DNA of 64,000 bases from Dehalococcoidia bacterium (GTDB lineage: Bacteria > Chloroflexota > Dehalococcoidia > Lucifugimonadales > JADFKI01), in NCBI GenBank assembly GCA_965214635.1, contig OZ243964.1:1939696-2003695 (forward strand), written 5' to 3'. The translations under genes were made by a program, and so were the position numbers. The notes under the pieces are model-generated. The model was not told where the DNA came from, searched no databases, and saw only the letters and a program-made list of their open reading frames with translations. Numbering within the stretch: the first letter of the stretch is position 1; every line of letters starts with the position of its first letter. Positions 6,070 to 10,280 of this stretch are shown here, one piece after another.

Positions 6070-6384
6070 TCTTTGGGGCTGCTATGTTCATTTTTTGTTC
6101 AGCCATAAGCCTAAAATGTCTTTATCACAGATGCCAGACAATGGGCAAAAACTTTGTTCGCTAATCGCACGGGCGTTCAGAGATGTGGGTGTTTCCTGTC
6201 AGCCTCTTGTCTTGTAGAATAAGCGCTGCACATTGACGCTGCAATCGTCCGATTTCTGATATTATTGCCTATCATCTAACATAGCCTGTTTAAATGGTCG
6301 GTGGGGGCATCCGGCTGTTCTCGCATATCCGAAATGGTCGGATGCTGGTATATAACGATAACCCTGCCCGGGAGGAACTTCCAT

Positions 6385-7767
6385 ATGGCGATGCACTTAC
6401 CCGCAAGCAGAGCCGACACCGTCAGCGAATATCGCACGGACGCTGGCGAGCTTCGCCCTGTATATGCCGATGTGATGACGGCGCTGGATGCGATGGGGAT
6501 CGACGAGATGACGCACCGCTGGCAGCAAGCCAAACGCCAAGTGGCGCTCGACGCCTTCTGCTTCCCGCTCGACCCCAAGTTCTACCGCCCCGTGCCGACC
6601 GACTGGATACCGCGCATCGTTACCAACGACGAGTGGCAGGTCGTCAAGGCGGGCGTGGAGCAGCGGCTCAAAGCCCTCAACTTGTTCCTGCTGAACCTAT
6701 ACGCCGGAAGCCAAGATGTCGTCCCGGATGATGTGGTCTATTCCTGCCAGTTCTTCTATCCGGAGTACCAAGACTTTCGCCCTGCCAAAGACCTGTTCGT
6801 GCACATATACGGCATAGACCTCGTGCAGGTGGCGGACGGGCGCTATGTGGTGCTCGAGGACAACCTGCGTATCCCCAGCGGCATCGCATACCAGATGAAG
6901 GCGGTGGAAATCGGCAGCAGCGTCATGCCCGAACTCGCCGCCGAATATGACATACTGCCATACGACATCCGCGAGACCTACTTGGACATATTCACATCGC
7001 TTTGCGACAAGGAGTCGCCCACCTGCGTGCTGCTCACCGATAGCAAGTATGGCTCAGCGTTCTTCGAGCACCGCTACCTCGCCGAGCTGCTGAACATCCC
7101 GCTCGTGGAAGGCTCGGACTTGTACATTGGCATCGGGGGCGATGTGTATATGAAGACGCTGGACGGCGATGTGAAGGTCGATCTCATCTACCGCCGCGTG
7201 GAAGACCTCGAAATCTTCGTGCCGGGGCTGACGGAGGCGTATCTGAACCACAAGGTCGTGCTGGTGAACGGGATGGGGACGAGCGTCGCAGACGATAAGC
7301 TCGTGTTCCTGTGGGTGCCGGAGATGATACGGAGCTATCTCGGCGAAGAGCCTATCTTGGATCAGGCGATGAGCTACGACCTCGCAGACACCGATAGTCG
7401 GAGATATGTGCTGGAGAACCTAGACCATATGGTGCTGAAGACCCGTCAGGGCTACGGCGGGCTTGGCGTGTACATAATGACCGACCTCGGCGGCAACTAT
7501 CACTCCCAGCTCACGCGGCAGATTATCGAGGATCCGCGCGGACTCATAGCGCAAGAGACGCTGAACTTCTCCAAGCATCTGGTCTATGATGAGGCGGCGG
7601 GCGAGTTCGATGAGCGCTACATAGACCTGCGCGTGTACGCCGTGCAAAACGGACGAGGCGAAGCCACCGCCTTCCCCGGCGGGCTGACGCGTGTCTCGCG
7701 CCCCGACAACCGCGTTACGAATAACTCCTCAGGTGGACTATGCAAGCCGACTTGGGTGGTCAGATAA
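6385..7767 (+). CDS. circularly permuted type-2 ATP-grasp protein
   Basis: 460 aa from ATG 6385, with GGAGG at 6372-6376. The ORF opens at 6301. The sequence layout (..YRTDAGELRPVY..GIDLVQVADGRYVVLEDNLRIPSG..YIDLRVYAV..) matches the COG2308-type ATP-grasp family that pairs with alpha-E and transglutaminase genes. Confidence 0.8.
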   Translation: MAMHLPASRADTVSEYRTDAGELRPVYADVMTALDAMGIDEMTHRWQQAKRQVALDAFCFPLDPKFYRPVPTDWIPRIVTNDEWQVVKAGVEQRLKALNLFLLNLYAGSQDVVPDDVVYSCQFFYPEYQDFRPAKDLFVHIYGIDLVQVADGRYVVLEDNLRIPSGIAYQMKAVEIGSSVMPELAAEYDILPYDIRETYLDIFTSLCDKESPTCVLLTDSKYGSAFFEHRYLAELLNIPLVEGSDLYIGIGGDVYMKTLDGDVKVDLIYRRVEDLEIFVPGLTEAYLNHKVVLVNGMGTSVADDKLVFLWVPEMIRSYLGEEPILDQAMSYDLADTDSRRYVLENLDHMVLKTRQGYGGLGVYIMTDLGGNYHSQLTRQIIEDPRGLIAQETLNFSKHLVYDEAAGEFDERYIDLRVYAVQNGRGEATAFPGGLTRVSRPDNRVTNNSSGGLCKPTWVVR

Positions 7768-8651
7768 GCGACACGGAGATGGTTGCCGGCTACACTTATG
7801 CGGCGCGCTATCTGTACTCCGACGCGGTGGTGCTGAACGACAACTTCCTCCGCATATCCGCCTGCGAGGATGCCTATCAGACGCCGATGTCGTCCAGTGT
7901 AATGACCACGCCTCCCGCTAGACCCATCAGGTACAAGGATAGGCTGGGCAACCCCACTCATCGTGTCCGCCTCACATCACCGCACAAAGAGCTGGTGATA
8001 CTCTCCGTCGGCAGCGTGCGGATGCAGCCCGTGCCGACGATGCTGGACGATGTGCCGCTGGATTCGCTGATATACGAGGCTTGGGCGGACGAGTTTCTGT
8101 CACCGTCGCCCATCGTGGCGCCCGAGCGGCTCGCCGACGCCGCACAGCGGATTGCGGGCGACGCATCTAGCCTGTTGGGCGTGGTAGAGGGCGTAATCCG
8201 CTGGATACACACCAACATCACCTACATATCCGGCAGCACCACCGTCGCCACCACTGCAGAGCAGGTGCTGGACTCGCGGCAGGGCGTATGCCAAGACATG
8301 ACGCATCTCGCGATGGGCATGCTGCGCGCGCTTGGCGTGCCGGCGCGCTATGTGAGCGGGCTGCTCGGCACGCAGGTCGGTGAAACGCATGCGTGGCTGG
8401 AGTTTCTGCATCCGCAGGTCGGCTGGCTGCCATCAGACCCCACGCGCGGGCAGACCATCGCCGCCGGTATGGATTTCGTCAAGTTCGCCATAGGACGCGA
8501 CTACACGCAGGCAGCGCCCATAGAAGGCTCGTTCGTATCCACCGGCTCAGGCTGGTTGGACATCGCCGTTGCGCAAATCATCCCAACCGCCGACTCTCTT
8601 TCCTTCGACGACGCCCTCAACCTGCTAGACGGCAATGCAGATCGCTGCTGA
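7740..8651 (+). CDS. transglutaminase-family protein (N-terminal bacterial transglutaminase domain plus Cys-His-Asp core)
   Basis: Core motif RQGVCQDMTHLAMGMLRALGVPARYVSG..THAWLEF..SDPT (catalytic Cys, His, Asp). Start uncertain: 7740 overlaps the ATP-grasp end, and 7779 is an alternative. Confidence 0.85.
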   Translation: MQADLGGQISDTEMVAGYTYAARYLYSDAVVLNDNFLRISACEDAYQTPMSSSVMTTPPARPIRYKDRLGNPTHRVRLTSPHKELVILSVGSVRMQPVPTMLDDVPLDSLIYEAWADEFLSPSPIVAPERLADAAQRIAGDASSLLGVVEGVIRWIHTNITYISGSTTVATTAEQVLDSRQGVCQDMTHLAMGMLRALGVPARYVSGLLGTQVGETHAWLEFLHPQVGWLPSDPTRGQTIAAGMDFVKFAIGRDYTQAAPIEGSFVSTGSGWLDIAVAQIIPTADSLSFDDALNLLDGNADRC

Positions 8652-8730: not shown

Positions 8731-9273
8731 ATGATAGAACCACGCTCATTGGGTGTCGCAAGAGACAACTGGCTGACCGATTCGCGGGCGTATAATCTGA
8801 TATGGCTTGGGCGGTGGATGGACAGGGCGGAGGCGATAGCGCGTGCGATGGACACTGCTGCGCGCCAAGCGCAGCGCGACGGCGGCAGCAACGATGCGCT
8901 CGTAGACCACCTATGCTACACAGCAGACTCTCTGGGTGTGCGTGCCCAAAACCGCGACGATGTGGCGGTCGAGCTGCTGCTACGCAACCCTGCATCGTCT
9001 GTGTTGCAAAGCCTGCTGAAAGCCCGCGTAACCGCAACACAGATCGCCCCCGTCGAGATGATGCGCGCCCTGTCCGATGTGATTCTGGACATAGAGGCGA
9101 TCTCCCCCGATGCGCTCCGGACGCCGCAGCAGATAATAGACGCTGCAACGGTGGTCATCACGAAGGTGGCGGATGTGGGTCAAGTGGTGGAAGACCAGTG
9201 GTTTGGGCGAGAGTCGCTCAGCGACGAAGAGGTGTATCGCCGTTTCGCCCAGCAACAGCAGCAGCAGCAATAA
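8731..9273 (+). CDS. alpha-E domain protein, half-size, with C-terminal heptaglutamine
   Basis: GAGGAG RBS. AYNLIWLGRWMDRAEAIARAMD resembles the alpha-E signature (LYWMGRYLERAE..AR). NPASSVLQSLLKARVTATQIAPVEMM resembles the second conserved alpha-E block. Only 180 aa versus about 300 typical. Ends ..RRFAQQQQQQQ-stop. Confidence 0.6.
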   Translation: MIEPRSLGVARDNWLTDSRAYNLIWLGRWMDRAEAIARAMDTAARQAQRDGGSNDALVDHLCYTADSLGVRAQNRDDVAVELLLRNPASSVLQSLLKARVTATQIAPVEMMRALSDVILDIEAISPDALRTPQQIIDAATVVITKVADVGQVVEDQWFGRESLSDEEVYRRFAQQQQQQQ

Positions 9274-9482
9274 CGCCAAGTCTGACCACCTCGGCAAACC
9301 GCCCTCACCCCCCGCCTGTGGCAGAGAAACATTCGTTACTACGGCTGGGCAGTCTGTCTCGGGTTGCTGTGCGTGGCTTGGGTTGGATGCTGCCGTCATC
9401 CTAGTCTTCTTCGGGGAAGGAAAATTAGGGATTCGCAGCTCGCTTGGGTGCGCGGGTGCTTGCGCATTGCGACATTGGCTGC

Positions 9483-10280
9483 CTACCGCCGAAACTCTAT
9501 GCGCTTGAACGCCTCGGCGTGCTGCATGCCCTTGCCGACTGCCCGCTGCCTGCGCCATTGGCGCATCGCGTCGTGCGCCCACGCCTCGTCCCTGCCGTGC
9601 ATCTGCGACTTGTGCTGCATGAGCGCACTGACCGATGTGTCCATATGCTCTGTAACATCTATGTACAGGTCTGGGTCTGGGTGTCCCATTATCCACACTT
9701 CCGCCACCTTGTGCGGCTCGAACCCGGCTTCTAGCAGGTCAGGGAAGGTCATGTGGTCGCGCGCGGCGGGGAACACCGCTTGCAGCGCAGCCTCGCCCGC
9801 CGCCATGTGGTCGGGGTGTCCCACGCCCCAGCCGCCGTCTAGGTTGCGCATCGGATACATCGTGATGACCACATCGGGCTTATACCGCCGTATTTCGCGG
9901 GCGATGTCCTTCCGCAGCTCCAGCGTGGGCACGAGCATGCTGTCTTCATAGGCGAGGAACACCACATCTTTCAGCCCCAGCGTCTTGCCGGCGTTGACCT
10001 GCTCTTTGCGGCGTATGCGCGCCAGCTTCTCTTGCGTCATATTCGGGTCAGAGCTGCCCTTGCTGCCGTCGGTGCACATCACATACACCATCTCCCATCC
10101 GGCGGCGCACAGCTTGGCAACAGTGCCGGAGCAGCCGAATTCGGCGTCATCTGCGTGTGCTATCACCACCATCCCGCGCGTGAAACTCTCGTCCACCTTG
10201 CGATCCACATCCACGCCCATCCCCTCTATGCGGGGTGGTATTTCTTGTCCGTTCTTGCCGTCCGTCCTGTCCTGTGTCAT
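9483..10280 (-). CDS. PIG-L/LmbE-family deacetylase
   Basis: VVIAHADDAEFGCSG and HPDHMAAGEA metal-binding motifs. GGGAG RBS before ATG 10280. Confidence 0.85.
   Translation of the reverse strand: MTQDRTDGKNGQEIPPRIEGMGVDVDRKVDESFTRGMVVIAHADDAEFGCSGTVAKLCAAGWEMVYVMCTDGSKGSSDPNMTQEKLARIRRKEQVNAGKTLGLKDVVFLAYEDSMLVPTLELRKDIAREIRRYKPDVVITMYPMRNLDGGWGVGHPDHMAAGEAALQAVFPAARDHMTFPDLLEAGFEPHKVAEVWIMGHPDPDLYIDVTEHMDTSVSALMQHKSQMHGRDEAWAHDAMRQWRRQRAVGKGMQHAEAFKRIEFRR

Follow-up and report, generated by a model that had tools for sequence, protein, structure and literature searches.

LysW/LysX, RimK-S6 and TTL/TTLL-tubulin are systems in which the C-terminal tail of one particular partner protein is the substrate of an ATP-grasp ligase, the type of residue that the enzyme extends or takes as its handle being already encoded in that tail. 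Another ATP-grasp ligase belongs to a widespread cassette, recognised since 2008-2009, in which it is encoded together with an alpha-E protein and a transglutaminase-like (TGL) protein. The canonical form of this cassette is COG2308-COG2307-COG1305, often accompanied by the proteasome homologue Anbu (Valas and Bourne 2008; PMC3235984), and the same cassette was reported by Iyer et al. 2009, as cited in PMC5666114 and PMC6376114. The published ideas on its role include protein tagging, peptide synthesis, and nitrogen scavenging or induction under nitrogen starvation (PMC3235984, PMC5666114, PMC6376114, PMC3495828); in one prediction, peptide tags resembling polyglutamate or polyglycine would be attached by the ATP-grasp enzyme and removed again by the TGL protein (PMC3495828). 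The only enzymatic biochemistry reported for the cassette is ATP hydrolysis by the ATP-grasp protein of Yersinia, and for the Anbu operon of Yersinia, pull-downs that probed Anbu alone against the other operon proteins yielded no specific interactions (PMC6376114). The Mycobacterium tuberculosis homologues Rv2411c and Rv2567 were negative candidates for another, unrelated reaction (2026 preprint). A functional characterisation of alpha-E cassette proteins was not found in the literature searchable here.

The cassette as such is thus already known; the half-size alpha-E subfamily and its 17-residue, glutamine-ended tail, which are the subject of the present analysis, are new to the literature searchable here. 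The preliminary description of the locus had likewise regarded the feature as undescribed for the cassette, and no mention of the subfamily or of its tail was found in that literature.

The cassette and its half-size alpha-E protein

The window, i.e. the whole stretch of 64,000 nucleotides from a Dehalococcoidia bacterium that was analysed, carries the three cassette genes on one strand (Table 1). The open reading frame of the ATP-grasp ligase begins mechanically at a GTG (position 6301); its likely start, however, is the ATG at 6385, giving a protein of 460 aa. The end of this gene overlaps the start of the TGL gene by 28 nt (7740-7767) and, since an overlap of about 24-28 nt recurs in most related loci, translational coupling is suggested. 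A gap of 79 nt separates the TGL gene from that of the alpha-E protein, the C-terminus of which reads ...EEVYRRFAQQQQQQQ before the stop codon (...SLSDEEVYRRFAQQQQQQQ in longer form), the tail peptide being LSDEEVYRRFAQQ.

Table 1. Positions of the cassette genes and of the alpha-E sequence features in the window
Feature	Position	Strand	Basis
Circularly permuted ATP-grasp ligase, cassette gene 1	6385..7767	+	Pfam CP_ATPgrasp_2 (2.1e-98), CP_ATPgrasp_1 (1.1e-76)
Transglutaminase-like (TGL) Cys-His-Asp protein, cassette gene 2	7740..8651	+	Pfam Bact_transglu_N and Transglut_core
Half-size (single-repeat) alpha-E protein, 180 aa, cassette gene 3	8731..9273	+	Pfam Alpha-E
N-terminal motif M-x-EPRS...D-x-W, residues 1-14	8731..8772	+	Conservation; predicted disordered
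C-terminal extension G159-Q175 (GRESLSDEEVYRRFAQQ)	9205..9255	+	Conservation in 124 tail-bearing proteins
Seven-glutamine run, apparent lineage-specific expansion of ancestral terminal Q/QQ	9250..9270	+	Run-length distribution, tree
TAA stop codon immediately 3' of the Q run	9271..9273	+	Sequence read

The preliminary description had placed the alpha-E gene third in a cassette with an ATP-grasp ligase and a transglutaminase-fold enzyme, and had read the extreme C-terminus of its product as YRRFA-Q7-TAA. Pfam matches for all three proteins agree with the former, although none of the three matched any NCBIfam model. The latter is borne out by the sequence at 9250-9273, in which the codons CAG CAA CAG CAG CAG CAG CAA are directly followed by TAA, and by an independent metagenome assembly (ERZ21849000, NODE_924) that encodes the identical 180-aa protein and whose gene calls of 460, 303 and 180 aa match those of the window. 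The protein is also present on a contig of 2.67 Mb. Since identical proteins occur in independent assemblies, an assembly artefact behind the Q7 tail is unlikely.

Scanning the surroundings of the cassette for promoters and terminators revealed sites no more numerous than in shuffled sequence. On the minus strand, an antisense frame of 238 aa (8980-9696) crosses the tail, where the CAG tract would be translated as poly-Leu; lying opposite a conserved gene and not being called by an independent gene caller, it is almost certainly spurious as a gene.

A word-indexed search yielded 63 relatives of the alpha-E protein with lengths of 176-194 aa, and a profile search over 1.8 billion representatives yielded 361 matches; the close relatives are named 'alpha-E domain-containing protein' at NCBI. 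The match of the window protein to the Pfam family Alpha-E (PF04168 / COG2307) reached 36.2 bits (E 7e-9), the cut-off being 20.8, and covered only positions 6-116 of the 294 in the profile, and with 180 aa the protein lacks the two-repeat architecture of ~300 aa. Canonical alpha-E proteins of 300-330 aa, when compared with the profile of the half-size family, matched it in two stretches, one in each half, which indicates that the canonical protein is an internal duplication, of which the window protein represents one repeat. Near the N-terminus, the family shows little or no variation in the sequence NLIWLGRWxER, and this ER motif is recognisable in the window protein. Residue 31 of the latter (8821-8823) is an aspartate (GRWMDR) in place of the glutamate of 'ER' found in 98% of the family.

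A further motif, M-x-[ED]-P-R-S...D-x-W, occupies the very N-terminus, with P4 and R5 conserved in 100% and W14 in 98% of 126 unique sequences. It is common to the half-size proteins with the tail and to a half-size sister group without it, and canonical alpha-E proteins do not have it. Residues 1-14 were modelled by AF2 with pLDDT below 50, and this stretch may be a second short linear motif, to which a partner could bind or at which the protein could be processed. With the family alignment, AF2 predicted the protein as an all-helical bundle with a mean pLDDT of 85.5, the bundle itself exceeding 90; the tail was helical in this model of the free protein as well, at about 68-79 (about 68 for residues 165-179). 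When PDB sequences were searched with the family profile, no match had an E value under 0.49, and a Foldseek comparison of the model with the PDB returned only generic helical bundles, none of them at E of 0.001 or lower.

The C-terminal extension and its glutamine run

Related loci, about 180 altogether, were collected in two scans of contigs representing one genome per species and in one metagenome scan. The tail formed part of one search pattern in the first scan, whereas the two later scans used N-terminal patterns only; these gave the same picture, and the conservation of the tail is therefore not circular. Canonical alpha-E proteins end 2-12 residues past a [WYF]F motif that aligns to W157-F158 of the window protein, and the window family runs 17 residues and the glutamines beyond that canonical end. 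The extension consists of an acidic and then a basic stretch (L-S/T-x-E-E-x-Y/F-x-R-F-V/A-Q), is predicted to be helical and, from these alignments, represents a clade-specific C-terminal module on a half-length alpha-E protein.

Following the WF pair, the motif xxExL[ST]xEEx[YF]xRF[VA]Q(n) is carried by all 124 distinct tail-bearing relatives. Glu166 is present in 99% of these unique sequences (123/124), Glu167 in 100% (124/124), Arg171 in 95%, Phe172 in 97% and the first glutamine in 97%; in the alignment of all sequences, which includes two tailless proteins, the same five positions reach 98, 98, 94, 95 and 95%, respectively. Conservation per position is 0.68-1.00 in the tail versus about 0.5 in the body. 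At the same time, synonymous codons vary at each position of the tail (GAA/GAG, six Arg codons), and this free variation means that the constraint acts on the protein and not on DNA or RNA. Residue and codon patterns together showed the 17-residue module to be evidently under strong purifying selection at the protein level.

The last residue is a glutamine, directly followed by the stop codon, in 116 of the 124 tails (94%), the background among open reading frames of 300 aa or more from these loci being 18/480 (3.8%); among canonical alpha-E proteins only 3/52 end in glutamine. With regard to a possible origin of the TAG and TAA stops from CAG and CAA, the stop codons of the tail (TAG 55%, TAA 29%, TGA 16%) show only a mild skew against the background of 39/27/34%. 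In every case the tail lies at the free C-terminus, natural fusions of the TGL and alpha-E proteins included. The preliminary description had proposed to check whether a C-terminal poly-Q or a terminal Q/E is conserved among orthologues. For the glutamine end this holds, all tail-bearing relatives ending in RF[VA]Q(n), so that the C-terminus is under selection and a sensible place for chemistry; the homopolymer, by contrast, is not conserved, n ranging from 1 to 10.

Among the 124 tail-bearing proteins, runs of one (17), two (61), three (21), four (6) and five to nine (19) glutamines were counted; two is the modal length, and the maximum of 10 was met in metagenome proteins. In open reading frames of 150 aa or longer, taken from 81 related loci, glutamine makes up 4.3% of the residues, and only 22 runs of at least four glutamines exist in about 365,000 aa of the related loci, 21 of them being the alpha-E tail; chance is thereby excluded as the origin of the seven-glutamine run. 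The sole other such run is located in the TGL frame of locus L016, at residue ~314. The clade formed by L016, L017, P0291 and P0297 has a C-terminal extension of the TGL protein with Q4-Q6 (...NPPAxLQQQQ(Q)GIAPIAPYEQ), and the alpha-E tail of L016 and L017 has only QQQ.

In a neighbour-joining tree based on the body of the protein only, long runs are spread over four or five separate clades at the least, i.e. the RRFA clade of the window (Q3-Q9), the group of L068, L070, L072 and L074 (Q6-Q8), and L123, L134 and L148. Even where identity between the proteins is 90% or more, as in one single cluster, the run counts 5, 7, 8 or 10 glutamines and is followed by nothing or by MCG, ICG, MCS, IYG, IRATCS, MRTTCS, MCGTCS or MRI. 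Such extensions (MCG, TCG, IRATCS and others) occur in about half of the closest metagenomic relatives, always behind a long run. The run is encoded by CAG in 80% and by CAA in 20% of its codons. The distribution of run lengths over the tree showed that the tail ancestrally ended, as far as can be read from extant sequences, in Q or QQ, that the number of glutamines is unspecified and that expansion has been recurrent. The tract would seem to be a slippage-prone triplet repeat at an unconstrained protein end, seeded by the conserved Q or QQ, and the glutamine-ended tail is probably much older than Q7, the lineage-specific run being a stretch of it. We infer that the seven glutamines of the window arose from the terminal QQ by an expansion of the triplet repeat that is tolerated, and that they are not a functional unit themselves.

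Many close relatives (P0002-P0047, P0213-P0233; L005, L008, L009) have, behind a long run, an end of the form x-Cys-Gly (MCG, TCG, LCG, VCG, ICG) or another short one; the recurrent Cys-Gly end may be selected or may be inherited read-through. Gene calls with the tail out of frame were seen in P0055, P0059, P0068 and P0213 (...RAATATAA..., ...QQQTATADSS...), which may reflect misassembly or genuine frameshifts within or ahead of the CAG/CAA tract.

Cassette context and possible roles of the tail

In each of the 80 genome loci collected first, the TGL gene lies directly upstream of the alpha-E gene, and in 79 of these 80 the ATP-grasp gene precedes both, with 62-83% identity; in the remaining one (L035) the contig ends inside the gene. 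The order ATP-grasp, TGL, half-size alpha-E was seen in nearly all further loci as well. The TGL protein has the catalytic residues Cys184, His217 and Asp233 in 48/48 aligned orthologues, without exception. The 6-kb flanks of more than 70 loci were searched for a fourth gene held in common, be it Anbu, a peptidase or a potential target; none was found, no flanking gene family occurring in more than 18 of these loci. In several independent clusters (P0240, P0262, P0290, P0323), and also in L034 (5134-6588) and L037 (5032-6522), the TGL and half-size alpha-E proteins form a single open reading frame, the clusters of P0262, P0290 and P0323 comprising 14, 41 and 16 member sequences, respectively; in P0240 the two parts were modelled with a disordered linker of about 40 residues between them. 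Such recurrent natural fusions, as Rosetta-stone evidence, argue for the TGL and alpha-E proteins acting as a physical unit.

Elsewhere (L002, 4937-5860, and similarly L003, L004 and L015), the genes for the TGL and alpha-E proteins are set apart by an inserted gene of about 1.2-2 kb, and the cassette appears to tolerate this. In L002 the insert is a 307-aa frame with a C-terminal coiled coil, which we take to resemble endonucleases of the Uma2/DUF820 type.

Tail-bearing proteins come from Dehalococcoidia/SAR202, from some archaea of the Nitrososphaerales/Nitrosopumilales (archaeal MAG or metagenome loci L081, L133, L151, L160, L162, L172, L173) and from Spirochaetia MAGs (L143, L147, L148), i.e. 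from three phyla. The archaeal tails are divergent, ending in RPYVQQE, with a final glutamate, or in RQFVNQ. The presence of the tail-bearing cassette in the archaea and Spirochaetia MAGs implies horizontal transfer, presumably of the cassette as a whole. The half-size sister group without the tail (P0081, P0085, P0090, P0093, P0095; L156, L158, L163, L082) ends in WFxxxx. Two of its members, L158 and L156, sit in the same three-gene cassette (in L158 in the order ATP-grasp, TGL, alpha-E) and the tail is therefore an add-on of the subfamily, dispensable for the cassette as such. Complete tailless half-size cassettes are rare in current genome collections, and covariation between tail and enzymes offers little to read, the tail being nearly invariant and the tailless cassettes with complete enzymes too few.

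With regard to function, the reading that we tentatively prefer, and to which we would give not quite an even chance, is that the conserved tail serves as a partner-recognition or presentation arm toward the ATP-grasp ligase and/or the TGL protein. The alpha-E protein would be the non-enzymatic subunit, and its C-terminal arm would contact, or offer its end to, one or both of the co-encoded enzymes; the conserved acidic-then-basic helix would carry the partner contact, and the arm would then run into the mutationally unstable CAG/CAA tract. Such an arm is suggested because the tail is conserved across three phyla, more strongly than the body, and nearly always ends in glutamine, because the gene order is constant, the TGL-alpha-E fusions recurrent and the TGL triad invariant, and because canonical alpha-E proteins end where the tail begins and the glutamine run is labile on the tree. 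Several observations count against it. The tail confidence in the AF2 models of the free protein and of the P0240 fusion predicts no confident docking; in the latter, the tail gained no confidence from the neighbouring TGL domain, with pLDDT 58-74 at a pTM of 0.63, which, with per-block confidence only, is a weak negative. The sister group that lacks the tail in the same three-gene cassette speaks against the arm too, as do the Anbu-bait pull-downs from Yersinia that gave no specific partners (PMC6376114). Furthermore, a role of the helix alone leaves the near-universal Q or QQ right after it unexplained.

The preliminary description had regarded the tail as a plausible built-in substrate, tag or scaffold. 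Sharpened with the published model of the cassette, this becomes the main alternative, plausible though rather unlikely: a covalent role in which the C-terminal end of the alpha-E protein would be an acceptor or primer on which the ATP-grasp ligase would build an amino-acid or peptide tag, with the TGL protein trimming or deamidating it. The encoded Q(n) would then be a genetically fixed primer or a mimic of the tag, and the invariant Glu-Glu pair could be an alternative acceptor. The parallels for such a primer would be the Glu-Glu of S6 (RimK), the tubulin tail (TTL/TTLL), the terminal glutamate of LysW (LysX) and the GGQ/GGE of Pup. Consistent with it, the terminal residue is a glutamine in 94% of the tails, the archaeal QQE echoes the GGQ/GGE split of Pup, and Glu166-Glu167 just upstream would provide carboxylates for an ATP-grasp enzyme; a variable length of the homopolymer is what would be expected if enzymes set the final length, the catalytic triad of the TGL protein is invariant, the tail occupies a free C-terminus throughout, also in the fusions, and the role would match the published prediction of tag ligation and removal (PMC3495828). 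However, canonical cassettes and those of the tailless half-size group have the same enzymes without the tail, which means that dependence on it is no general property of these enzymes. Likewise, the xCG or other ends behind the glutamine run in about half of the closest relatives mean that a free glutamine carboxylate is not universal unless these ends are processed. Tails with a single glutamine leave almost no flexible reach past the helix, and the AF2 model of the fusion leaves the tail without a confident position.

Improbable in our estimation is the more specific proposal that the alpha-E C-terminus is the long-sought acceptor of the cassette, the ligase adding a homopolymeric tag to the Gln/Glu end and the TGL protein deamidating or trimming it. 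As part of the same improbable proposal, the encoded poly-Q would be a hard-wired primer, and canonical cassettes would perform the same chemistry on an unencoded tail. If true, the acceptor would represent a prokaryotic counterpart of tubulin polyglutamylation or of RimK-S6.

We also think it quite unlikely that the tail is a purely structural element, an extra helix that packs on its own bundle or forms a homodimer interface replacing the missing second repeat, the glutamines being incidental. The tail is indeed predicted to be helical in all contexts, its acidic (DEE) and then basic (RR) residues with the spaced Leu163, Tyr169 and Phe172 would suit a packed or self-stabilised helix, and half-size proteins must plausibly dimerise in order to mimic the two-repeat canonical form. 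Yet the half-size sister group manages without the tail, the pLDDT of the latter (about 68) is clearly below that of the bundle (>90), so that no confident packing is predicted, and the extreme invariance of a surface helix on bodies that are only 33-40% identical is more typical of a partner interface. Finally, it is most improbable that the whole tail is without function, as neutral read-through, low-complexity sequence or a sequencing artefact, since, despite the behaviour of the glutamine run as an unstable repeat and frameshifted gene calls nearby in some metagenome contigs, bacteria and archaea share the 17-residue motif almost unchanged while its synonymous codons vary, and the identical sequence is found in independent assemblies, so that lack of function is contradicted for the motif and can be entertained only for glutamines in excess of QQ.

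The tail subfamily is found in abundant marine and sediment Chloroflexota (SAR202/Dehalococcoidia) and in some ammonia-oxidising archaea. A near-invariant, glutamine-ended tail on the non-enzymatic subunit of the cassette offers a concrete and inexpensive experimental handle, requiring one peptide and one truncation. A modified tail would reveal the chemistry of the whole cassette family, and a tail that only docks, as favoured here, would still identify the binding partner of the alpha-E protein.

Comparison with known systems

The pupylation system Pup/Dop/PafA resembles the present one in that a protein with a C-terminal glutamine (glutamate in a subset) is encoded beside an ATP-dependent carboxylate-amine ligase and that a second enzyme is present which could, in principle, deamidate. 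Pup, however, is small (about 60-70 aa), disordered and ends in GG[QE], whereas the window protein is a folded helical bundle of 180 aa, and none of the 124 tails contains Gly-Gly, the terminal Q (QQE in archaea) being the sole common trait. The ligase here is a circularly permuted ATP-grasp enzyme, whereas pupylation uses the GS-like PafA/Dop; moreover, unlike in pupylation, neither a proteasome nor Mpa was found in the flanks of the cassette that were checked. The identity of the window protein as a Pup-like tag is ruled out by its size and fold, the lack of GG and the different ligase.

In the systems in which an ATP-grasp ligase acts on the tail of a partner, the tails of LysW, S6 and tubulin end in glutamate (EDWGE, EE, and Glu-rich with or without Tyr, respectively), whereas the tail described here ends in glutamine. 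The ligases LysX/ArgX, RimK and TTL/TTLL are of the RimK or TTL type, that of the window belonging to CP_ATPgrasp_2. Where the tails of S6 and tubulin gain residues after translation, the sequences considered here show a homopolymer that is encoded and variable in length. A carrier of the LysW type is ruled out too, LysW being a zinc ribbon of ~55 aa with EDWGE, so that size, fold, tail and ligase family all differ.

With the canonical cassette, the locus shares the same three families, all above the Pfam threshold, a tight gene linkage with overlap, the GRWxER motif of alpha-E (with Asp at the Glu position in the window) and the intact Cys-His-Asp triad of the TGL protein. The gene order differs, being ATP-grasp, TGL, alpha-E here and ATP-grasp, alpha-E, TGL, Anbu in the Anbu operon (PMC6376114), and neither Anbu nor any conserved fourth gene lies within 6 kb of the cassettes considered here. 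The alpha-E protein, in contrast to the canonical one of ~310 aa, has half that length (about 175 aa, one repeat), and only here does it carry the EPRS motif at its N-terminus and the glutamine-ended tail at its C-terminus.
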